Of a stretch of 64,000 nt of DNA, positions 4,127 to 26,594 are shown piece after piece. The stretch's first letter is position 1, and each line of letters starts with the position of its first letter. The translations under genes were made by a program, and so were the position numbers. Origin of the DNA: Poseidonia sp. (GTDB lineage Archaea > Thermoplasmatota > Poseidoniia > Poseidoniales > Poseidoniaceae); NCBI GenBank assembly GCA_016778305.1, contig JADHPT010000001.1, positions 136,457 through 200,456 on the forward strand, written 5' to 3'. The notes beneath the pieces were generated by a model, which worked only from the letters and a program-made list of their open reading frames with translations, searched no databases and had not been told where the DNA came from.

Positions 4127-4531
4127 TTGGTAATAATGTGGGCACGGCGGACAAGGATTCTGGTGATTGGCGCCATCGTCACGCTTGGACTCATGGCTAC
4201 GCTTCTTCTTCAGGCACCTGTTCCAACCACAACCGTTGATGAATTAATGACTTCACCCGAAACTCACATCGATGACGAAGTGGCCGTTCGTGGACAGGTA
4301 CTTGATGGAAGCATCGATAATGGAACCATGACCTTTGTACTCGAAGGTGAAATGTCAACTCTTGCCATACGATTTACCGATGCCTCAGTTTCCAACGGTC
4401 TTGATGATAACCGTACCGTATATGCTGAGGGAGTGCTGTTGTATGAAGATGGGGATTACATTTTGGACGCGTCAGTGATCAAAACATCTTGCCCGTCCAA
4501 ATACGAAGAAGAAGCCAATACGGAAGGCTGA
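4127..4531 (+). CDS. ccmE: cytochrome c maturation heme chaperone CcmE, archaeal CxxxY variant
   Basis: 134 aa with a single N-terminal TM helix and an OB-fold-like core. Alignable to CcmE (VAVRGQVLDGS vs VRLGGLVMPGS; ILDASVIKTSCPSKYEEE vs ILAKEVLAKHDENYTPPE). Cys replaces the heme-binding His (C-P-S-K-Y). Confidence 0.6.
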   Translation: MVIMWARRTRILVIGAIVTLGLMATLLLQAPVPTTTVDELMTSPETHIDDEVAVRGQVLDGSIDNGTMTFVLEGEMSTLAIRFTDASVSNGLDDNRTVYAEGVLLYEDGDYILDASVIKTSCPSKYEEEANTEG

Positions 4532-6450: not shown

Positions 6451-7506
6451 TTACCTCCTCTCATCCTTGATCGCTAAATCCTGCATGATTTGGGCGTGTT
6501 CGACCTCGGAAATGTTCAATTGTTGACGTAATGTTCTCAAAATTGCATGCTCATCAACCGTGATAATTTGGTCTTGCATTGCAGTTTTTACTGCTGCAAA
6601 ATAGGTATCATAATGCTCAGAAACAAGGGGCTGATCTCGTGCTTTGTCAAGGAGTTCTTGATGTTTGATCTGGTCGATTCCAAAAGCGATTCGAAATGTT
6701 TCCAGCAGGTCTACCTCCTCTTGTACAATTTCTCCATCGTCAAGCGCTTGCATGATCATGTCAAAGTAAACTTCCTCAGGTGGTGGTATCTTCAGTGATT
6801 TTCTCGCATCGTTTGAGAGTCTTCTTGCCCGTTCAGGGTGCATGCCAAGAAACTCAACAACTTCGTTGAGAAGGGATTGCTCATCCCGAGTGATTTTACC
6901 ATCTTCCCATGCCCTCGCAAACATACGTCGGACAAGTTCTTCTCCATATTGAGCGTCAAGTGATGCCATTCCTTCGGGATTCGAAAGAGGTGAGATCAAA
7001 GCACTATCGTGGTATTCAAGCCCTTCATCAAGATGTGATAGGAGTTCTAAAATTGGCTGGGGAGATTGCCAAAGGCTGCCGAGCAAAACCTTCGTTCCAT
7101 TATGAGTGATCTTCATTTTGAAAAACCGTTCTTTGAGGCCTATTGCATGCTTCGTACCTTTCTCGGTGAGGGTGTAAACTCGTTTTCTTTGTTTGCCGCC
7201 GGGAATATGCCGTTGTGCGACATCGATGAGCTGGCTTGATTCCATTCGCTTAAGCGTTCTCGGAATGTGCTTTCTTTGGACGTGTACTGCTGCTGAGATG
7301 CCTGCTTGAGTGAGGATGGCAGGTGCTTCCCAACCTCCACTGGGCAATTGTTGGTTAAACAAATGCAGCAAGGTTCGCTCTTCCGTGGTGAGTGTGCCGA
7401 GGTATCCGTCCACCATCCCTTTCTCCTCGTTAAGATGCAGTCTGCGATAGCACATAGGGCAATCGGTTTCGTGCGACGGAATCAAATGAATGAAATCCTT
7501 GGTCAA
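6451..7506 (-). CDS. winged-helix DNA-binding protein fused to two TerB/DjlA_N-like domains
   Basis: N-terminal wHTH (RHIPGGKQRKRVYTLTEKG). Two TerB-like repeats (KITRDEQSLLNEVVEFLGMHPERARRL; IITVDEHAILRTLRQQLNISEVEHAQIM). Confidence 0.6.
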   Translation of the reverse strand: MTKDFIHLIPSHETDCPMCYRRLHLNEEKGMVDGYLGTLTTEERTLLHLFNQQLPSGGWEAPAILTQAGISAAVHVQRKHIPRTLKRMESSQLIDVAQRHIPGGKQRKRVYTLTEKGTKHAIGLKERFFKMKITHNGTKVLLGSLWQSPQPILELLSHLDEGLEYHDSALISPLSNPEGMASLDAQYGEELVRRMFARAWEDGKITRDEQSLLNEVVEFLGMHPERARRLSNDARKSLKIPPPEEVYFDMIMQALDDGEIVQEEVDLLETFRIAFGIDQIKHQELLDKARDQPLVSEHYDTYFAAVKTAMQDQIITVDEHAILRTLRQQLNISEVEHAQIMQDLAIKDERR

Positions 7507-7509
7507 GCC

Positions 7510-8601
7510 ATGACGGGTCGACAGCGTAACTACACGCCTCGGATCCGATCGACTCGTCCGTTAGGAGGTCCTCGCACCCCTAATGCGCCTCCTGCGGCTC
7601 AACTTCCTGAACCTGTTTTACGGGATGACCTCTGGTATCTCCCACCACCGCTCTCGCAGAGATTGCATGAGAAGAGTGCACTGGGCAAACGAGCAAAAGA
7701 CGGTGGTATCTTGCTTACTCCTGAAGAAGTTCTGTTCTGCCATTGGTATCGCCATGTTCCCCTCGCCAACCCAGAAGCCTGGCTTGAGAGAGAAATGGTT
7801 CGTGATCCTGGATTGGAAGCAAAAGTGATCGCCATGGACGTTTTGAGGAACGGAGGTGAACGTGTTGTTCCAATGGACCACCTCACTGATCGCTTTCCAA
7901 CAATCTCAAATCATACGTGGGCCATACGCTTTGAACGTCATGAATCCTGGAGACAACACGGTGGATTCAGTCAAATCCGAGTTCAACGGACGCATGATGA
8001 AGTGAACTGGGAGGAATTGAACCAGTGGGTACAAAGCGTTCTTGAGAACAACCACATCCCTGAGCTTTGTGTTATCGATGACGAACTGGATGCTACAGTG
8101 TACAACCTGTCGCATGAACAACCGCACGGAGACCAGGTTCTGCTTAGCGATTTATCAGCGGAATTATACACGGATCTTGAATCCTTAATTTCACGGTCTG
8201 TTTCGGTTGAGAATGGGATGTTTGTCTCAGATGTTTCATCTTGGCCTTTGCCTGCTATCGGAATTGAGCATTTTTCTGGGCGCTTCCTTCGAAATGAGGA
8301 ACATGAGTACTTACGGAGCCTCACTAACGGTGAACAAGCAGACAACCTCTATGCCTATCTGGCAAGTCAGCGTCTCCTTCTGCGACCGGGTTTCAAATTC
8401 GGATGTCTATGGAGGGCATATGAGACCGGTATTAGCGTTGAACATGCACCCTGGTTGATTCAACCGGTCAATGAGGCTGCCAAGAATTGGGAAGGTATTT
8501 GCCTTGCCGTTCGATTGGCTGAGGGTGTCAACAAACGTTGGTTATGCGCCAGTGAATTTGAAGGGAAATGGACCTTTCTCAACATTCAGCGTTCAGGTTA
8601 A
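7510..8601 (+). CDS. endA: tRNA-splicing endonuclease, duplicated (two-unit) form
   Basis: ORF track 7306..8601 overlaps the divergent upstream gene; the conserved part begins at ATG 7510. C-terminal catalytic signature RPGFKFGCLWRAYETG...HAPWLI (cf. GFKFG.DF.VY...HS.YLV). N-terminal unit LTPEEVLFCHWY. Two repeat units. Confidence 0.75.
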   Translation: MTGRQRNYTPRIRSTRPLGGPRTPNAPPAAQLPEPVLRDDLWYLPPPLSQRLHEKSALGKRAKDGGILLTPEEVLFCHWYRHVPLANPEAWLEREMVRDPGLEAKVIAMDVLRNGGERVVPMDHLTDRFPTISNHTWAIRFERHESWRQHGGFSQIRVQRTHDEVNWEELNQWVQSVLENNHIPELCVIDDELDATVYNLSHEQPHGDQVLLSDLSAELYTDLESLISRSVSVENGMFVSDVSSWPLPAIGIEHFSGRFLRNEEHEYLRSLTNGEQADNLYAYLASQRLLLRPGFKFGCLWRAYETGISVEHAPWLIQPVNEAAKNWEGICLAVRLAEGVNKRWLCASEFEGKWTFLNIQRSG

Positions 8602-10686
8602 CGTCTCATCAATAACTCGTCCCCACGGGTCGAGTTCTTCGCTGATTTGACTTGCTTCTCCTTGTTCCTCTGGCATCGCATCTTTCTCAACGATTGTTCC
8701 TTTATGTTGAGGTGTCTGAAACGTCATTGCAGCGAAATACAGAGTGAGGGTGAACATGAGGAGTGCAATGATTCGTCCCGGCGTTCTGTAGGTTGCTAAG
8801 AATTCATCATCCTCACTATCTGCTCTTAATTCGACATTGATAATCCACTGCTGTCCTTCTTCAGTGTGCAGTTCAATATGGCCTTGTACGATCATATTAT
8901 CAACCAATAATCCAGTTGGCTCAATCGTGAGTACATAGGTACTGTTTTCTCCAATTGTCACGGATGGCGGGCCGCTTGCGACGCGGGACAAGGCGCCGTC
9001 AATGTGTACGGAAAGGCGCTGTGTATTTGCTCCTAATGATTCAATCGGGATTTCCAACAAGGTATTTGATACAACATTGATGCGGCTGGAATAATCAGCC
9101 CCAATCGGAATTCGATTTAACGTATGAACCGTGTATTCAATGTTGAATATATCTTGCTCACAAAGAATGTTTCCCGTAAGTACAGCAATGGAGTTAGGCG
9201 TGCCTTGGGAACTAAAGTTAAGATGATAAAATCCGCTTTGATGATTCATCAGACCAACTGATCTTCCATCACTGGACGAGAGTTCTGAAGAACATGTCGT
9301 TGTTATCGGTATGCCAGTGCTGATGGTACCGCTAGGGAGGATGGTTGCAACGTGGTCAGGTAGATCGAATTCTACATTTGGGGAGCAATTAGCGGATGTG
9401 AATTCAACCGTTGTTTCGTTTCCGATGAGCACATTCGCTGTCCAGGGTACAAGGAGCCCGTCATGCGTGCGAATCTCAATACCGCTTGCACCAAAATAAC
9501 TCCCATTTGTGAAAACATCTGATGCTTCACCTTGATTTGCCCCAGATAGCATGTCCTGTCGACCGTCTGCCTCAATCACCATGAGCCAAGGAAGGTTTGG
9601 ATTGGAGTTGACTTCATTATTGTCGATATTGCCTACGCTTTGATCTTGATAGGTCACCAAGATACCGTGACCGGGGAGCCGACTATCATATCCAACGTCG
9701 GTTCGTAATTCAACAAAGACGGCTTCATCATCGGCAAGAGGGATTCGTAATATTTCTCCCCCCTCACTCGTCCCCTCCATCGTGATGGTTGGGCCCAAAC
9801 AGGGCTCAGCGGTACCAACAGGCCATGTGAGGTCCAACTCTTTGATTCGTGGACTCTCGATCAATTCCATGCTTGCACCCGTAGGCAAAGCTGGCCAGCG
9901 ACCTGCCCCGTTCCAATTTCCACTCGCCATTATATCCCAGTCGCCAAGACCTTTCCAAGATTGGAATGATGTCTCATCATGAACTGGATACAAATCAACA
10001 GCACCCATTTGATGCATCATTTCGTGAAGGATCGTGCCGACACCACTCGATCCAGTTTGCAAACTCGCCATGGTATAGTGATTGGCTACCATAGAATCTG
10101 CTACGGATATCGGTTCTTCAAAATGGGTGAAATGACTCCAGATACGTTCAGTGCGTGATGGATTCTCTTCCTGCCCCTTTGCCGAATGCAATAACAACAG
10201 ACGATCAACTTCACCATTGCTATCCAAATCAAAAGTTGACCAGTCAACATCATCTTTGATTGCATCAACGACGTATGTTGCCAATTGATTGGGTAAGAAA
10301 TCACCCTTGGCATTGGTGTCCCGTGCATTGTTATCCTCCCCATAGAATGCTAGATTCGATGACGCTCTTACAACTTCCTGGTGAACAAGAACCTCAAATT
10401 GAGTCGTTCCTCCAGAGAGTTGGTCGAGATATTCTGAAGCACTTTGGGTGACGAGATTCTCAGCTTCTTCAACACCCCATGCCTCAGTTGAGGGGTAATC
10501 AGGGAAATCAACCACAACGACCAACCAAGTTTCATTCGTTTGTAGGCCGAGTAAATCGGAGTGGTCTTCGTTAGCCGTTACCACTTGTTGAACGATCCAA
10601 TCCTCAACGGTTTCATCGTTGACCCATGCCCACAGTCCAGAACAAAGAAAAAGAAGCGAAAGGAAGAGTGTCACCAACCGCTTCAT
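8593..10686 (-). CDS. secreted M6 (InhA-like) zinc metalloprotease with C-terminal membrane anchor
   Basis: Signal peptide MKRLVTLFLSLLFLCSG with a possible lipobox. Zinc motif HEMMHQMGAVD (HExxHxxGxxD). C-terminal hydrophobic segment IIALLMFTLTLYFAAMTF with an acidic tail. Confidence 0.75.
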   Translation of the reverse strand: MKRLVTLFLSLLFLCSGLWAWVNDETVEDWIVQQVVTANEDHSDLLGLQTNETWLVVVVDFPDYPSTEAWGVEEAENLVTQSASEYLDQLSGGTTQFEVLVHQEVVRASSNLAFYGEDNNARDTNAKGDFLPNQLATYVVDAIKDDVDWSTFDLDSNGEVDRLLLLHSAKGQEENPSRTERIWSHFTHFEEPISVADSMVANHYTMASLQTGSSGVGTILHEMMHQMGAVDLYPVHDETSFQSWKGLGDWDIMASGNWNGAGRWPALPTGASMELIESPRIKELDLTWPVGTAEPCLGPTITMEGTSEGGEILRIPLADDEAVFVELRTDVGYDSRLPGHGILVTYQDQSVGNIDNNEVNSNPNLPWLMVIEADGRQDMLSGANQGEASDVFTNGSYFGASGIEIRTHDGLLVPWTANVLIGNETTVEFTSANCSPNVEFDLPDHVATILPSGTISTGIPITTTCSSELSSSDGRSVGLMNHQSGFYHLNFSSQGTPNSIAVLTGNILCEQDIFNIEYTVHTLNRIPIGADYSSRINVVSNTLLEIPIESLGANTQRLSVHIDGALSRVASGPPSVTIGENSTYVLTIEPTGLLVDNMIVQGHIELHTEEGQQWIINVELRADSEDDEFLATYRTPGRIIALLMFTLTLYFAAMTFQTPQHKGTIVEKDAMPEEQGEASQISEELDPWGRVIDETLT

Positions 10687-10724: not shown

Positions 10725-12071
10725 TTATTGCATAGAAAACGCTTTGATTCCATACTCCCCTTGGATGACTCGTTCAATCTCTGTGTAGTCGCTCATATCT
10801 TGCGGCAAACGGAGCACCAGTGTGTCTTGATTAACATAATTCCAACGTGTATCTCCGGTCGGCATAATAGCATAGTTTTGGGGAAGTGTTTCCTGTTCTT
10901 CAAGAAGGTCACGTAGCCGAAAAGGTATGCTCGCATGGTCAAAGGGGTCGTTCATTTGAAGCAGAGCTAGTTGTACTTCGAATGATGTTTCTTGGTTGGA
11001 CATGACTCGATGATTCTGTAAAGCCATGAGATTCAATCCGTGCAAGGTGGCATCCAGCCGCTGAAAATTATTTTTGAACTGTACAGGGCAAGGTGTTCCA
11101 TCGCATCCTGTAATCACAGCATCCGTGATGTTTTCATTGATGAGGTGACCTATCACTGCATTTCTATCACGTTTATTCTGACAAATATTGCTGGTTCGTA
11201 CGGTCGAATACCCCGGAAAAGGAGTAAACCCATGATGATCATTTGCTCCCGAGCAGGAACAATCTAAGATGGCAACTTTCCTTCGCCTTCCTTCAGAATC
11301 GAAACGAGGTGATGCCCGGCCATAGGTGTCTATTTGTTTTGAAAACCATTGAAGCCCCACTACCTCGCCACCGGTCCAAAAGAGAATTAAAACGGGCAAA
11401 ATGGCTGATTGCATTTGATCGGGAATTGATAAAACCAAGAGCATTGATCCCATTCCATAGATTCTGAACCGCCACAGATCTGAAGAATCCTGATGAAGGA
11501 TACCCATGATTCCAAGGATCACAAGAGAACTCCAAGCGATGAAGAAAATCAACAATATCCAAAGTGTCGATAGGAGGATCACTAACAGTTCTACAGCACT
11601 GTATTGCGCCTCAAGCCCAACTGCTATGTGATTGGCGTGACCCTTTGCGTAAATGATCGGAAATACTTCCAACACCAATAAGCCTGCAAGGAAGATGGTA
11701 AAGAGAACAGAACTCCATGTCCAACGACGTAGTGCATTGAATTCTGCCGGGAGCAAGCCAGGTTTGGCAAATTGATGCATCTGGTATAAGAGGAGCGGAA
11801 GGCATGAAAAAATGCCCAGGAGAATTGAAGCCATCCATCGTACGACACTCCATTGCGCAGGTTCGTAGATGTTCAAGCATGATTCTGAACAAGGTTGTAA
11901 ATGCCCCATAAGGCTTGCGAGTGTCGAATCAATCATTGTATACCATGTGAAGGACATCAAGCAAATACTGATGAACAATATCGTTGTACGTAATGTCAGT
12001 TCATCAAGATGGCTTTGAAGGGAGGCATCGCTGTCCGATTCAAGAAGAACCGACATCGTTGAACATCTCAC
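10725..12071 (-). CDS. tatC: Sec-independent translocase TatC fused to a ~200-aa C-terminal Cys-containing soluble domain
   Basis: First ~250 aa are a six-TM TatC: HLDELTLRTTILFISI (cf. HLEELRKRL) and YQMHQFAKPGLLPAEF (cf. FxxPGLyxxE). C-terminal domain ILDCSCSGANDHHG...ICQNK...ITGCDGTPCP is of unknown function. Confidence 0.7.
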   Translation of the reverse strand: MRCSTMSVLLESDSDASLQSHLDELTLRTTILFISICLMSFTWYTMIDSTLASLMGHLQPCSESCLNIYEPAQWSVVRWMASILLGIFSCLPLLLYQMHQFAKPGLLPAEFNALRRWTWSSVLFTIFLAGLLVLEVFPIIYAKGHANHIAVGLEAQYSAVELLVILLSTLWILLIFFIAWSSLVILGIMGILHQDSSDLWRFRIYGMGSMLLVLSIPDQMQSAILPVLILFWTGGEVVGLQWFSKQIDTYGRASPRFDSEGRRRKVAILDCSCSGANDHHGFTPFPGYSTVRTSNICQNKRDRNAVIGHLINENITDAVITGCDGTPCPVQFKNNFQRLDATLHGLNLMALQNHRVMSNQETSFEVQLALLQMNDPFDHASIPFRLRDLLEEQETLPQNYAIMPTGDTRWNYVNQDTLVLRLPQDMSDYTEIERVIQGEYGIKAFSMQ

Positions 12072-13099
12072 AGGAGATCGGTGTATTGCTGTGGGGCTCT
12101 AGCTTGAACAATGGTTCGATAGACGCCATAGATTGCCCAGAGTGTGAGCATACCAGCGACCAGAGCATACCCCCAAGGTTGTCCATCGTCAACAAGATAT
12201 GCAAAGAGAACTGCTAGTCCAGCCGCTAATGCTCCGCGTCGCAATCCCTGCGGTATCGCTAGACTCTTGTCAAGGTGTGGTGGGCCACCTCCAAATTTGC
12301 GTTCATAGAATTCTCCCTGTATGACTGCTGCAACGATGATAAGTGATAATGTAGCCCAGTAGTAGAGGTTTCCGTTGGTGAAGAAGTCATCAGCAATGCC
12401 CTCTTGTCGTTCGGCCTCAAGTGCCTCAGGGTCTTCTACAGCTACGAAGAGTGCATCATAGTCTCCAACGCTGATCGTTCTCATTGAGACGTCTTCGTTG
12501 GTTGCTATTTCGGTCGCACCGGGTTCACTGATGGTGAAGGCGAGAATATTCCACTTATCGCCTTCATCGAAGTTTCCGTTCCCGTTAACTGCGTTTCCAA
12601 CGAGTTGGAAATTCACGGGGCCTGCATCTTCTGCGGGAGCAGTCCACTGGATAACCCAGTCATTACCAGGTTCGCTTTGAGACAGTGCACCGGGCTCTTC
12701 TGACATAACTTGACTGCCTTCTCCAGCAGTGAATGTACCGGATCCGTAGTCGTAAATCACGAAGCCTCCAATTTCGTTGGAAGCATGTTGAAGCTTGATG
12801 GTCATTTCATAGGTTTCGCTTAGATTGTACGCCCTCGGGACATTGGAGATGGAAACGACCACTTCAGTTGATGGAGCTCCTCCACCGTGGCACGTACACC
12901 CAGTATCAACAATGTCTTTTCCTCCGTTATCCCATGGCGGTCCGTTGGGGTTTCCAAGCGCTGGAGCAACCAGCATCAGGGCGAACAAGAGGATGAGAGT
13001 GACGAATCGTGTGTTGCGTTGCATGTACTCACCTGTTATTTGCACTTGGCCTCTCTCTTTGAATGTTGCTTCATCACCGTGGTTAGAAACACCGTTCAT
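12068..13099 (-). CDS. hypothetical secreted, membrane-anchored protein (TGCTCHGGG motif, 3 C-terminal TM helices)
   Basis: Probable real start at internal Met 13024 (MQRNTRFVTLILLFALMLVAPALG signal peptide). Extracellular beta-rich domain. Three predicted C-terminal TM helices. Confidence 0.5.
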   Translation of the reverse strand: MNGVSNHGDEATFKERGQVQITGEYMQRNTRFVTLILLFALMLVAPALGNPNGPPWDNGGKDIVDTGCTCHGGGAPSTEVVVSISNVPRAYNLSETYEMTIKLQHASNEIGGFVIYDYGSGTFTAGEGSQVMSEEPGALSQSEPGNDWVIQWTAPAEDAGPVNFQLVGNAVNGNGNFDEGDKWNILAFTISEPGATEIATNEDVSMRTISVGDYDALFVAVEDPEALEAERQEGIADDFFTNGNLYYWATLSLIIVAAVIQGEFYERKFGGGPPHLDKSLAIPQGLRRGALAAGLAVLFAYLVDDGQPWGYALVAGMLTLWAIYGVYRTIVQARAPQQYTDLL

Positions 13100-17792: not shown

Positions 17793-18173
17793 TTATGCGA
17801 AAGATTCTCCACAACCGCACGAGGCACTTGCGTTTGGATTGCTTATCTTGAAGCCACCACCCATCAATCGGTCAACATAATCAATTTCAATGCCGTCAAG
17901 CAGGTGGCTGGATGCACGGGGAACCAAAACACGATATCCCTTGATGTTCAATTCTTGGCATGGTGTTTCTGTTGATTCTACAATTTGCAGGTCATACATG
18001 TAACCTGAGCATCCTCCACTCAAAACGCCGACGAGAAGAGCGTGGCTTCGATCGTCACCGAAGGCTTCTGAGAGCATGTCAGTCGCTTTGTCTGTCATGG
18101 TCAAATTGACATCAACTTCATCAGGAACATTCAGTTCAATGGTCGGAGTAGTCTCACAAGTCCCGCAGTCCAT
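17793..18173 (-). CDS. iscA: iron-sulfur cluster insertion protein, HesB/IscA/ErpA family
   Basis: 126 aa. C-terminal SCGCGESF signature plus an upstream conserved Cys. Confidence 0.85.
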   Translation of the reverse strand: MDCGTCETTPTIELNVPDEVDVNLTMTDKATDMLSEAFGDDRSHALLVGVLSGGCSGYMYDLQIVESTETPCQELNIKGYRVLVPRASSHLLDGIEIDYVDRLMGGGFKISNPNASASCGCGESFA

Positions 18174-22830: not shown

Positions 22831-23025
22831 TCACCTCAAAACTCCATCCATGTCCATGTCAAGAGTGTTAGCATGGCCGCAGTGCCGACTAAGGCGGTGG
22901 TGCGCGTCGCCTGAAGCCGCTGCGTGAAATTGCGGAGGTACCACGTCAACACCCCGCATATGGCAACAATAACCCACAAGACATACCATGCAGGTGGATA
23001 AGGTGACACAGAAGGGCCTGTTCAC
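22831..23025 (-). CDS. small Cys/His-rich ORF (64 aa), possibly a real peptide
   Basis: FCVTLSTCMVCLVGYCCHMRG...HHRLSRHCGH. Its ATG overlaps the stop of the giant upstream gene (ATGA) and it ends 5 nt before the PqqD-like gene. Could be spurious. Confidence 0.3.
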   Translation of the reverse strand: MNRPFCVTLSTCMVCLVGYCCHMRGVDVVPPQFHAAASGDAHHRLSRHCGHANTLDMDMDGVLR

Positions 23026-26000
23026 AATGTGCCATCAAGATATTGTTGTCCGTAATAGGTCCACTGTTCTTCTGTCCAACCTGCTGGTAAGCCGCTCGCA
23101 GGTAATGGCGGGCCCGTTGGTGCGATTTCGACAGGTACCGTCGGAGCATTGATGGCTTCCTCAACGGGTTGATCTGCTGCAATAGTGGATACGTTGTTTC
23201 GGTCGCTGGTTGGAGGTCCTGAAATCGGTGCGACTTCTTTATGATATTCATTCCCTTCAAATCCGAGTTCTTCGTCTCGATTTCGGGTGCCTCGTAGCAT
23301 GAATACGAGGAGTGCGACAAATGCAATGCCTCCGATGCTCCCGCCTACCATCACAACGGAACCAAACGAATCATCTTCCGGTGGTTGTTCAAAGGATAAC
23401 ATCACCACCTGAGTAGATCTCAGTTCACCATCATCTGACGCAACGACAAACCTCACTTCTCCATCTAGCGGTCCGTTGAGATTGAGAACCTCGCAGCGAT
23501 TTTGGTTAAATTGTGGCGTTATGTGCCCTGGTGTGGCTTCAAATTGAATGCCTGTAGAATTGATCAGGCGTTTATCGCATGTAACCTGCCAACCCTCATC
23601 TGCAGATGCTGTGAGCGTGTACTGTTCTGTCATGGTTGAGGAGGAAGTATGATTCACCCAGATACTTGCCGCTGTGCCGTAATCTACGATGCCAGGGATG
23701 GATGGTGCTGCGGTCATCACCATGCTGCGTTGTTGGTCAAGAAGAATCATTGATTCGTCCATTAAGATGATTGGTAAATTTTCTTCATCAACGACACCAA
23801 TGACATCAAACCGAATGACGAATTGTGTGTTGAGGGGTGTGTCAGCAGGCACGATGACTTCAACTCGTAGTGTCACATTCGAACTAGCCGGAATGATGAG
23901 TTCGACTTCTGAACCCATTTCTTTTTGTCCCCCATCGATGGTGAAGAATGAAATGAGGCCAACTGTAGGAGGTGAAGAGGATAAGGTGGCCACTACAGAG
24001 AGACGGTTTTCTACCGCATTACCATCATTGAACAAAACAGTTTCAGCATAAAACATCCCATTCGCCATCGTTGAACCACTGTTTGATGAATGTCCGAGTG
24101 AAGGTTGCCGGACTGCGCCAGTGGCTGCCAACACTTCGACGCTGTTATCAGTCGGGTTGGAATCGATTCCCTCAGTCATGATGACTGCCTCGATATTGAT
24201 GTTGTGCAATTCGCCGGCGGCTTCCGTCATCGGAAGCATAACCCACAGGGTTACGTTACTGATGTGCATGAGGTCGTACGAGACACTCAGATCAATTGGA
24301 CCTGTGTGTTCTTCATTTTCAATTGTGAGCCACCAAGTCCATGTTTCTGGTAAATCAATTGGATTGATTCCAACTTGCGTTGGGCCGTTTCCTTTGTTTT
24401 CAACAATTAATTGTATTGCGTTTGGGATGCTAGGCGTTAGTTTCGTCGGAGCCTCTCCAATGGAAAGAGCAACATCGTGCGTGGTGCTAACACGCATCCG
24501 GTCAAAGGAATCACCTTCTACAGTCATGAAACTGCGTTGAGATTCAATGACTGGTTTAATCGTGGGGCCACGATCATTAGCGATTGCATTGTGAGGGACA
24601 TCGATAACGATTTCAAATGTGGTTGACATCCCTGAATTGAGGACTGCGTCAGGCCGAGTCGGTTGATGAACAACCCACTGACCCGCATCTTCTACCAAAA
24701 CGCTCATCGCAAAAATATCTTGTCGGGTCGCATTATTCCATATCATATATTCAAGGACGATGGATTCTCCAGCATCGACAAAATACCAATCAGAATCTAT
24801 GTCTGAAATGAGCATCACTGATGCATCGCTTATCATTGATGCAGATATTGGTATATCTGCGGATGCTACCCGACTCGTATCGTTTTGAGAACGAAGCGTG
24901 AATTCAACATCAACAATCGTATCAGGTGCAGCAGTTTCTGGAACTGTCATGGTCATCAGCACGTTGAAAACATCATCTGGCCTCAACAATACCGATGATG
25001 GTTGTGACCAAGCGAGACCGACAGACCAACCACTGGGTAGAGAAGAAGTATCAATATCCACATCAAATACATCGGTGGCATCTCCTTGATTGGTGATGCC
25101 GACCTCAAAGGTGCAGGTGTATGATGGTGGGCAACTTGGACGGACACTCGGGGGAAGGATGACGGGGATTCTGTCAGCCATCACAAGGAATTGGACGGGC
25201 ACAACGGTTGAAATGCTCGAGTATTGCATGGAACGAATTGAAACACTCATTTGTTGGAACCCGATGCTAGCGTTGGCATCTGGTTTAATCATGATTTGAA
25301 ACGGAGTAGGGGTTCCGGGAATCGTCATCAGCCCCTCCAATGGGTCGAGACTTGTCCCGGATGGACGTGCATAATAGGCATCCCACCCAGTAGGCAACCC
25401 GATCATCTCAGGAATGAAAAATTCTGAGATATTACCGGTATTCAAGATCTCGATATTGATGCTTCCCCATTCACCAGGTATTGCACCATTTGTCCCCGTC
25501 CCTTGGGCAGACACATTGTAATCTGTCATACGCACCTTCTGATCATATAAAATGACGATTTCATCAATGTAGAATCCAATGTCGGTGCCACTTGCGTCTG
25601 AGGTAAACTCAAATTTGAATTGGCTGGATGAATGGAAGAGGTCCGCTGCTACAGGGAGAAGTGGGGAGGTTGCACCTTTGTTGTTGAAGCTGAATGTATT
25701 CCAATTAGCACCGTCCGTAAAATCTTGGTCAACGGTTCCTGAAATAGTTCCTATTTCTGACCAAGCACCGAAAACGTTGATTCCATAAACCGTTAATTTA
25801 TCATTGGCGAGTGTGCTCCCAGTGTAATAAAATGAAAGTCCATTGGTTCGCAGTGGATTGCTGATAGCATCCGATAAATCCATGACAGGTGTTGTCATTA
25901 TGGACAGTGCATTGTTATTGTAGGTCGACAATTGACCGTTTCCTGCATGGCAGCTGCGACCCTTCGAAATTGATGTATCAGTACTAAGTGTCCAACCTGA

Positions 26001-26594
26001 GCCAAGAGTCCATTGTGTCGTTGCATCGCAATTGAAGTATTCATAGCCAACGGCAAAACCTTGCGACATTGCATCATTGCTTGGTACATCATCGGATATC
26101 GTTGATGTCGCACGCATGACCAAGGTATGGTTTCCCGAATACGTTGGAATGATAACAAGGTTGGCTGTATTGCTTGATCCGGGGGAAAGTGATGCCATTT
26201 GGACGGTCGTATTAACGAATTCAAAATAGGTATACTCATTGTGGAGCAATAGGACATTCACATCGATGACTCCCGATGAAGCCGTACCAATATTTTCAAC
26301 TGTCACGGTTAAGGATGTGGACACGTTGACCATTGAATCGATGACGTAGAGTTCTGCGGGACGATTAAAACCCAAAATTGGATGATTGGATGAAAACATT
26401 CTGTAATTGTCTTCATCCGTGCTTGTTGTATAGGATACTGAGACGTCGATGACACGTACGTCAACACCCGTTGGGTTGCTTGGACTCAATAGCGGCGAAG
26501 CCTTTTCGAGCCAACTCACATTCGAAAGAGGCGAACCCAGCATAATGAGGGCAAGGATAAGAGGTACGATTCTCCGCATGTTGACCATAAACAC
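23022..26594 (-). CDS. giant Ser/Thr/Asn-rich surface (S-layer/adhesin-like) glycoprotein with C-terminal TM anchor
   Basis: 1190 aa. Signal peptide MRRIVPLILALIMLGSPLS. Many N-x-S/T sequons and beta-rich repeats. Single C-terminal TM helix and a 90-aa cytoplasmic tail ending PAGWTEEQWTYYGQQYLDGTL. Confidence 0.8.
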   Translation of the reverse strand: MFMVNMRRIVPLILALIMLGSPLSNVSWLEKASPLLSPSNPTGVDVRVIDVSVSYTTSTDEDNYRMFSSNHPILGFNRPAELYVIDSMVNVSTSLTVTVENIGTASSGVIDVNVLLLHNEYTYFEFVNTTVQMASLSPGSSNTANLVIIPTYSGNHTLVMRATSTISDDVPSNDAMSQGFAVGYEYFNCDATTQWTLGSGWTLSTDTSISKGRSCHAGNGQLSTYNNNALSIMTTPVMDLSDAISNPLRTNGLSFYYTGSTLANDKLTVYGINVFGAWSEIGTISGTVDQDFTDGANWNTFSFNNKGATSPLLPVAADLFHSSSQFKFEFTSDASGTDIGFYIDEIVILYDQKVRMTDYNVSAQGTGTNGAIPGEWGSINIEILNTGNISEFFIPEMIGLPTGWDAYYARPSGTSLDPLEGLMTIPGTPTPFQIMIKPDANASIGFQQMSVSIRSMQYSSISTVVPVQFLVMADRIPVILPPSVRPSCPPSYTCTFEVGITNQGDATDVFDVDIDTSSLPSGWSVGLAWSQPSSVLLRPDDVFNVLMTMTVPETAAPDTIVDVEFTLRSQNDTSRVASADIPISASMISDASVMLISDIDSDWYFVDAGESIVLEYMIWNNATRQDIFAMSVLVEDAGQWVVHQPTRPDAVLNSGMSTTFEIVIDVPHNAIANDRGPTIKPVIESQRSFMTVEGDSFDRMRVSTTHDVALSIGEAPTKLTPSIPNAIQLIVENKGNGPTQVGINPIDLPETWTWWLTIENEEHTGPIDLSVSYDLMHISNVTLWVMLPMTEAAGELHNINIEAVIMTEGIDSNPTDNSVEVLAATGAVRQPSLGHSSNSGSTMANGMFYAETVLFNDGNAVENRLSVVATLSSSPPTVGLISFFTIDGGQKEMGSEVELIIPASSNVTLRVEVIVPADTPLNTQFVIRFDVIGVVDEENLPIILMDESMILLDQQRSMVMTAAPSIPGIVDYGTAASIWVNHTSSSTMTEQYTLTASADEGWQVTCDKRLINSTGIQFEATPGHITPQFNQNRCEVLNLNGPLDGEVRFVVASDDGELRSTQVVMLSFEQPPEDDSFGSVVMVGGSIGGIAFVALLVFMLRGTRNRDEELGFEGNEYHKEVAPISGPPTSDRNNVSTIAADQPVEEAINAPTVPVEIAPTGPPLPASGLPAGWTEEQWTYYGQQYLDGTL

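Follow-up and report, generated by a model that had tools for sequence, protein, structure and literature searches.

The 64,000-nucleotide stretch of Poseidonia sp. DNA analysed here (contig JADHPT010000001.1, positions 136,457 to 200,456; hereafter the window) carries a gene for TatC, the receptor subunit of the Tat (twin-arginine translocation) machinery, which continues beyond its membrane core for about 200 residues into a folded, cysteine-bearing domain. We call this protein TatC-X. The fusion is genuine and spans both families of the archaeal order Poseidoniales, and this architecture appears not to have been described before. [quoted passage not shown] The parts of the gene are as follows.

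10725..12056, minus strand: the TatC-X gene as most likely expressed, 443 residues plus stop, starting from the ATG at 12056.
11337..12056, minus strand: divergent TatC membrane core, residues 1-240 (Pfam PF00902, hhalign, hydropathy, invariant columns).
11877..11891, minus strand: PCxxxC pair of the first extracytoplasmic loop, formed by Cys56 and Cys60 (alignment).
11316..11336, minus strand: short linker QIDTYGR after the sixth transmembrane helix, TM6 (alignment).
10992..11315, minus strand: conserved, probably cytoplasmic alpha/beta core of the extension, residues 248-355 (AlphaFold2, cysteine statistics, similarity to HdrA-N).
10728..10991, minus strand: variable C-terminal subdomain, residues 356-443 (alignment, AlphaFold2).

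The original prediction had assigned the protein to an open reading frame at 10725..12071. This frame does exist on the minus strand as the maximal one (448 residues, GTG start), and the cysteine strings quoted from it (ILDCSCSGANDHHG, ICQNKRD and ITGCDGTPCPV) are all found in the protein. Initiation at the GTG at 12071 would, however, add five residues that are present in no homologue. Because all homologues begin with MSVLLE, and because the identical NCBI entry (P0001, 'MAG: twin-arginine translocase subunit TatC [Candidatus Poseidonia sp.]') is 443 residues long, the true start is almost certainly the ATG at 12056, located 11 nucleotides past the stop codon of the upstream gene.

A search of 5.8 billion proteins recovered 91 clusters of homologues, 33-82% identical and nearly all 366-443 residues long. 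The fusion is an uninterrupted single reading frame in 90 of them, from many independent assemblies and on contigs of up to 2.09 Mb. When each GTDB species was represented by one genome and scanned with the full-length alignment as the query, 42 species loci carrying the fusion emerged, all from metagenome-assembled genomes (MAGs) of Poseidoniales except for one labelled Verrucomicrobiales. This last locus (L013, NZEQ01000052.1, 'Verrucomicrobiales bacterium ARS100') holds the full Poseidoniales block MDH-PntAB-ChoiceV-TatC-M6-endonuclease and is almost certainly an archaeal contig that was binned wrongly. The more divergent representatives carry the name Candidatus Thalassarchaeaceae (Marine Group IIb, MGIIb), and thus the fusion is present in both Poseidoniales families, MGIIa and MGIIb. 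An exhaustive hidden Markov model (HMM) search with the C-terminal domain alone against 1.84 billion representative proteins (E values up to 1e-3) returned 75 matches. In all full-length ones a TatC core precedes the domain, which lies at about residue 250; the short matches are fragments, which come from short contigs or begin in mid-domain, and two long matches are spurious, being repeat proteins whose scores add up. The domain is thus restricted to the TatC-X fusion and is not a common extension of TatC. An assembly or frameshift artefact merging tatC with a separate downstream gene could be invoked for the lone cluster with a frameshifted, scrambled C-terminal part (P0091) and for the few short database entries holding the domain by itself. 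The recurrence of the same unbroken frame in 90 clusters and 42 species genomes, together with the fragmentary nature of the domain-only entries, leaves this explanation practically no chance, and the joining of two genes, raised in the original prediction, was rejected. We found no description of this fusion in the literature on Tat in Poseidoniales/Marine Group II or on TatC extensions or Fe-S, and the product names of the homologues in the databases read plain 'TatC', an annotation which conceals a lineage-defining architecture.

The membrane part belongs to a divergent TatC subfamily, as judged from sequence profiles. Pfam TatC (PF00902) matches residues 20-220 with 46.1 bits (cut-off 25.1, E = 6.8e-12), and the same family is the precomputed annotation of all 90 homologues. 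The scores for the NCBIfam models TIGR00945 (39.8) and TIGR01912 (30.9) lie far under their respective cut-offs of 132.7 and 192.6. The core had originally been called an unmistakable TatC; the assignment holds at the level of the Pfam gathering score, but the protein is atypical and remains below both NCBIfam equivalog thresholds. When the family profile was run against the sequences of the PDB, TatC chains were the sole matches, and weak ones (E 0.2 to 4; 12-14 bits). Profile comparison with E. coli TatC by hhalign was clearer (P = 1e-5) and paired HLDELTLR (consensus HLDELxxR) with HLIELRKR, and FAKPGLLPAE with FIAPALYKHE. In E. coli TatC, E15 and E103 are established as the glutamates that bind the twin arginines of the signal peptide. 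They align with Glu19 and Glu105 of TatC-X (E24 and E110 in the 448-residue numbering), which are invariant in a 25-sequence alignment; among the divergent members of the family, the equivalent of Glu105 is kept in all and that of Glu19 in most.

Hydropathy reveals hydrophobic segments at about residues 24-42, 71-89, 117-135 and 157-175 and a double peak at 206-235, a profile compatible with six helices. Since TatC has an N-in/C-in topology, in which whatever follows TM6 is cytoplasmic, the C-terminal extension should lie in the cytoplasm. The PCxxxC pair of the first extracytoplasmic loop precedes the strongly conserved CLNVYDPAQWSAVRW. The pair is unchanged in 89 of the 90 Poseidoniaceae-type sequences and missing from many Thalassarchaeaceae members; it probably forms a disulfide specific to the lineage, within TatC's periplasmic cap.

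The extension was modelled with AlphaFold2 from a 36-sequence alignment, and the prediction is of high confidence over all 196 residues (mean per-residue confidence pLDDT 94; overall fold score pTM 0.88); the core domain modelled by itself gave a pLDDT of 84. The first 108 residues or so form a beta-alpha-beta core (in domain numbering, beta1 14-19, beta2 37-41, helix 48-60, beta3 65-69, helix 78-86 and beta4 90-94), which is confidently predicted to be a Rossmann/flavodoxin-like alpha/beta fold. The rest is a helical/beta subdomain, also confidently folded in the model, which several clades lack or have in shortened form. Pairwise identity averages 41% for the core domain, 49% for the TatC core and 18% for the variable subdomain, and from the alignments the extension is conserved beyond chance.

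The core domain contains Cys266, Cys268, Cys292 and Cys318, arranged as CxC...C...GC, and an accessory Cys323. In the model each of the five sits in a loop that directly follows beta1, beta2 or beta3 at its C-terminal end, that is, at the classical ligand-binding edge of Rossmann/flavodoxin-like folds. The four core cysteines (C19, C21, C45 and C71 in domain numbering) are invariant in 31 cysteine-bearing representatives, and the CxC...C...GC core is nearly universal across the 157 domain matches obtained in both searches. The fifth cysteine is more mobile: it is found as 'GCDxxxCP' in 83 of these matches, has moved to 'CxCxGxCP' in 21 (mostly Thalassarchaeaceae) and is absent in 20, while about 10 matches have lost all cysteines. 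The same behaviour is seen in the 90-sequence set, where 79-80 sequences have all five cytoplasmic cysteines and 10 have none of them. Because the four-cysteine core is invariant, the fifth cysteine wanders and the loss is all-or-none, the cysteines appear to act as one functional site, with a pattern that fits a metal or Fe-S centre; in this respect the cofactor-like character ascribed to the domain in the original prediction is in line with the alignments.

The subclade devoid of these cysteines (P0080-P0090 and P0117, a clade of 366-residue proteins; loci L033-L038) also lacks the variable subdomain. The first cysteine is replaced there by Ser, the second by Asp, Glu or Gly, the third by His (10 of 10), the fourth by Asp (8 of 10) and the fifth by Leu. 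The fold and the conserved ITD and F-x-x-N motifs are retained, and the His and Asp replacements could still serve as metal ligands.

We then asked what the domain resembles. No Pfam or NCBIfam family consistently matches it in a scan of 36 members, and the domain profile run against PDB sequences gave matches to eS12 only, at chance level. While no library family could thus be assigned, structure and profile comparisons both point tentatively to HdrA-N. With Foldseek, the seven top places are all occupied by HdrA chains, from four different Hdr complexes (E 1e-4 to 1e-3, probability 0.97-1.00). HdrA N-terminal and MvhD sequences for comparison were taken from PDB entries. With the initial 36-sequence profile, hhalign gave P = 0.005 for HdrA-N and P = 0.027 for MvhD; a more diverse, 138-sequence profile of the core against a 124-sequence HdrA-N profile gave P = 2.4e-4 over 89 columns, nearly the whole domain. 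In this alignment the CxC motif is in register with C11-H-C13 of HdrA, Cys292 with C46 and Cys318 (GC) with C71 (AC), and the LQNHR segment of the C-terminal part of the domain aligns with ANIRE of HdrA. The controls, CheY and flavodoxin, gave P of about 0.5. The HdrA N-terminal domain holds a [4Fe-4S] cluster, whose ligands are its own cysteines and one from a partner subunit (PMC9012536, PMC13518236). These data suggest that the domain is probably, though not demonstrably, a distant relative of the HdrA-N/MvhD-type Fe-S domains.

A faint likeness to the proximal-cluster domain of NuoB or of the [NiFe]-hydrogenase small subunit had been suggested initially. It comes down to a single 'GC(P)P' motif, in a local match of DAVITGCDGTPCP with DVYIPGCPPRPE (hhalign P = 0.021 over 33 columns). 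Only this one NuoB cysteine motif aligns, with no equivalent of CC/CxxC or GxCxxxG in register; the score of HdrA-N is about 100-fold better, over the whole domain, and no NuoB or hydrogenase chain is present among the structural matches. It is therefore very improbable that the domain is of the NuoB type.

TatC-X lies between two genes for exported proteins.

12068..13099, minus strand: choice-of-anchor V protein, upstream of TatC-X (NCBIfam NF041895, E = 4.3e-23; synteny).
8593..10686, minus strand: M6 (InhA-like) metallopeptidase, downstream of TatC-X (TIGR03296, E = 1.9e-33; PF05547; synteny).

As had been proposed, both products are exported or membrane-anchored, to judge from their hydrophobic, signal-like N-terminal segments. 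The peptidase has an N-terminal signal and a C-terminal transmembrane anchor; the choice-of-anchor V protein has a signal peptide, 2-3 C-terminal transmembrane helices and, right after the signal peptide, an invariant extracytoplasmic GC(T/N)CHG(G/V)G. In the loci first collected, the gene order was the same in 43 of 43: MDH (opposite strand), PntAA-PntAB-PntB, choice-of-anchor V, TatC-X, M6 peptidase and tRNA-splicing endonuclease (opposite strand). Two Thalassarchaeaceae loci retain the trio choice-of-anchor V/TatC-X/M6 peptidase, which in one of them stands behind ribosomal protein S7 and EF-2 and not behind PntAB, so that the trio keeps its synteny throughout the 45 loci examined. Within the block, no gene evolves faster than TatC-X, with about 40% identity versus about 78% for the upstream gene; the latter value holds for the choice-of-anchor V protein within MGIIa, and falls to 42% towards MGIIb (L001-L045).

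The possibility that the neighbours are Tat substrates was evaluated from their N-termini. Those encoded in the window begin with MQRNTRF and MKR; many orthologues begin with MRRNFRN or MRR, others with MQR, MKG, MRL or MKR, and the MGIIb copies with MRLGTR or MRLITAR. Given this variation in the twin arginine, and the strong hydrophobicity of the h-regions, the signals look like Sec-type ones, and the neighbours were rejected as Tat substrates. A scan of the window for a twin arginine followed by a hydrophobic stretch retained only CcmE, as a signal anchor, and a CARDB-domain protein. The latter (23022-26594, minus strand, 1190 residues), with an N-terminal signal-like segment MRRIVPLILALIMLG and CARDB/FixG_C Ig-like domains, is probably a large surface protein. 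TatA was sought with an HMM over open reading frames of at least 35 residues and was not found in the window or within 10 kb on either side of the gene in 43 related loci, in agreement with the earlier remark that none is visible nearby. tatA is often unlinked to tatC, particularly in archaea, and may well sit elsewhere in the genome.

Several other genes of the surroundings deserve mention. The CcmE haem chaperone (4127-4531, plus strand; PF03100, E = 3e-7), which L001 and L044 also encode, no more than about 8 kb from their TatC gene, implies that the organism has at least part of the system I cytochrome c maturation pathway; the CxCH motif of the exported choice-of-anchor V protein, in a genome encoding CcmE, makes one ask whether a haem or metal site of an unusual kind is present. 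A HesB/IscA-like A-type Fe-S carrier (17793-18173, minus strand; PF01521, E = 1.6e-15) is encoded some 6 kb upstream, within the conserved block of synteny, and likewise in L001; its link to the cysteine domain of TatC-X is one of proximity in the block alone. The tRNA-intron endonuclease homologue (7306-8601, plus strand) has an unusually long maximal frame of 431 residues, of which the catalytic domain occupies residues 348-417 only, and shares a few bases, on the opposite strand, with the 3′ end of the M6 peptidase gene. Related loci differ widely in the length of the called product, for instance 229 residues in L001 and 346 in L044.

Taken as a whole, we propose that TatC-X would be the Tat signal-peptide receptor of the Poseidoniales and the core subunit of their translocase, with a divergent six-helix core keeping the glutamates for twin-arginine binding. 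The ancestor of the order would have gained a cytoplasmic domain, joined to the end of TM6 and composed of the Rossmann/flavodoxin-like core and the variable subdomain. The core would present four cysteines along the C-terminal edge of the parallel sheet, completed by a fifth from either of two loops, and these residues would be the ligands of a metal centre, most likely an Fe-S cluster in a layout like that of the HdrA N-terminal [4Fe-4S] domain. The domain would lie under the substrate-binding face of TatC as an accessory module with a part in regulation, quality control or assembly; it might make the activity or oligomerisation of the receptor depend on redox or Fe-S status, or offer a docking site to a partner. 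Binding of a metal or an Fe-S cluster is inferred from the pattern of the cysteines and the layout that they share with HdrA-N. No Hdr/Mvh-type partner (FAD domain, HdrBC or hydrogenase) was found in the protein or in the conserved neighbourhood. Because no redox partner is fused or adjacent, and because one clade has replaced every cysteine yet kept the fold, the domain is more likely regulatory, quality-control or architectural than catalytic.

Several observations weigh against this proposal. A subclade without any of the site cysteines exists, the spatial clustering of the four cysteines is deduced from the topology of the model only, and a four-cysteine site could equally bind Zn. The probability returned by the profile-profile comparison of the core with HdrA-N is only 43%; among the 36 members scanned, Pfam FlpD (PF02662) matches one (E = 0.04), the protein of the window itself being without a match, and NCBIfam HdrA (NF041778) also matches one (E = 0.076). 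Moreover, a working Tat pathway in these organisms is assumed: no TatA was found in the window or near the gene in the related loci, and the scan for a twin arginine and a hydrophobic stretch revealed no convincing substrate in the 64 kb of the window.

These points leave room for two other explanations. The domain might be a structural, Zn-binding or cofactor-free docking module unrelated to HdrA, its likeness reflecting convergence of a Rossmann-like fold with cysteines at the strand ends. We consider this rather unlikely: the four cysteines are in register with those of HdrA over the whole domain, with a P value which the control folds do not approach, the top Foldseek places are all taken by HdrA chains, and a fifth cysteine in alternative positions is more characteristic of Fe-S sites than of structural Zn sites. 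The other explanation concerns the membrane core. A TatC-derived protein may have lost its role in Tat export to work with the choice-of-anchor V protein and the M6 peptidase, for instance as a dedicated insertase, a scaffold, or one part of a trans-membrane redox or maturation system. The synteny of the trio, kept in the Thalassarchaeaceae locus with a different upstream context, the lack of a nearby TatA and the high divergence of the core, below the NCBIfam cut-offs and far in excess of that of the upstream gene, would all be accommodated. However, the conservation of the twin-arginine-site glutamates across the order is hard to explain without signal-peptide binding, an unlinked tatA is common, particularly in archaea, the neighbours carry ordinary Sec-type signals and synteny is broadly conserved anyway in these streamlined genomes. 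We therefore regard a repurposed TatC as distinctly improbable.

Two more specific mechanisms were discarded. A tethered twin-arginine pseudo-substrate, in which a seemingly invariant FDxEGRRRR linker would plug the site of its own TatC, was rejected since the motif is not conserved in Thalassarchaeaceae, where it degenerates to a single Arg (EGGLRR, DGAVHR, DGTIQR). A trans-membrane thiol relay connecting the periplasmic PCxxxC to the cytoplasmic cysteines, in the manner of DsbD/CcdA, was rejected as a general mechanism because many MGIIb members without PCxxxC keep the cytoplasmic cysteines. A bolder form of our proposal, to which we attach a low probability, is that a built-in HdrA-N-like Fe-S sensor or relay beneath the signal-peptide site gates the export of folded, cofactor-bearing proteins according to redox or Fe-S status, or that the cluster bridges TatC protomers in the place of TatB; in its most radical variant, the trio would be a self-contained export and processing system independent of TatA.

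How the Tat pathway exports only folded, cofactor-loaded proteins is a long-standing question. To our knowledge, every known form of Tat quality control depends either on separate chaperones or on features of the translocon that are poorly understood. With a probable Fe-S domain permanently attached to its cytoplasmic face, such a TatC would amount to an experiment of nature tying the receptor to redox or Fe-S status and, if the bolder form of the proposal is true, would represent a receptor-integrated 'proofreading' or assembly control without a described counterpart. Its conservation covers the whole of the Poseidoniales, an abundant and ecologically dominant order of marine archaea. If the homology to HdrA is true, the known contexts of the HdrA-N/MvhD-type domain would extend outside electron-bifurcating complexes. 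The domain is small and confidently modelled, and hence amenable to expression and testing in vitro.

HdrA-N (5ODC chain A, residues about 1-107) is the best match of the TatC-X domain with both Foldseek and hhalign. The two are small beta-alpha-beta domains with CxC...C...(A/G)C in register, and the match reaches a C-terminal N-x-R-E/H motif. MvhD/FlpD (PF02662), the [2Fe-2S] electron-transfer subunit, also has cysteines after the beta-strands and a C...GCxxxC motif; its hhalign match is weaker than that of HdrA-N (P about 0.01-0.03 over 32-56 columns) and its first motif is CCxxC, whereas that of TatC-X is CxC. NuoB/PSST and the [NiFe]-hydrogenase small subunit are likewise flavodoxin-like in their Fe-S domain and have 'GCP' after a beta-strand, but their other cysteine motifs are absent from TatC-X.

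Among TatC proteins, the canonical ones (E. coli; Aquifex aeolicus, 4B4A/4HTS) have in common with TatC-X the match to PF00902, a core compatible with six hydrophobic segments, the N-terminal H-L-x-E-L-x-x-R and the P-x-L-x-x-x-E of loop 1, which hold both glutamates for twin-arginine binding, and an (S/T)-x-P-D motif ahead of TM6. TatC-X differs from them by its strong divergence, by about 200 extra residues, predicted to be cytoplasmic, that form the folded cysteine-bearing domain, and by the lack of an adjacent tatA. An archaeal precedent for a TatC fusion protein is the haloarchaeal TatCt (Haloferax/Halobacterium), a tandem TatC-TatC; there the membrane domain of TatC has been duplicated, whereas TatC-X adds a soluble cysteine-bearing domain instead.

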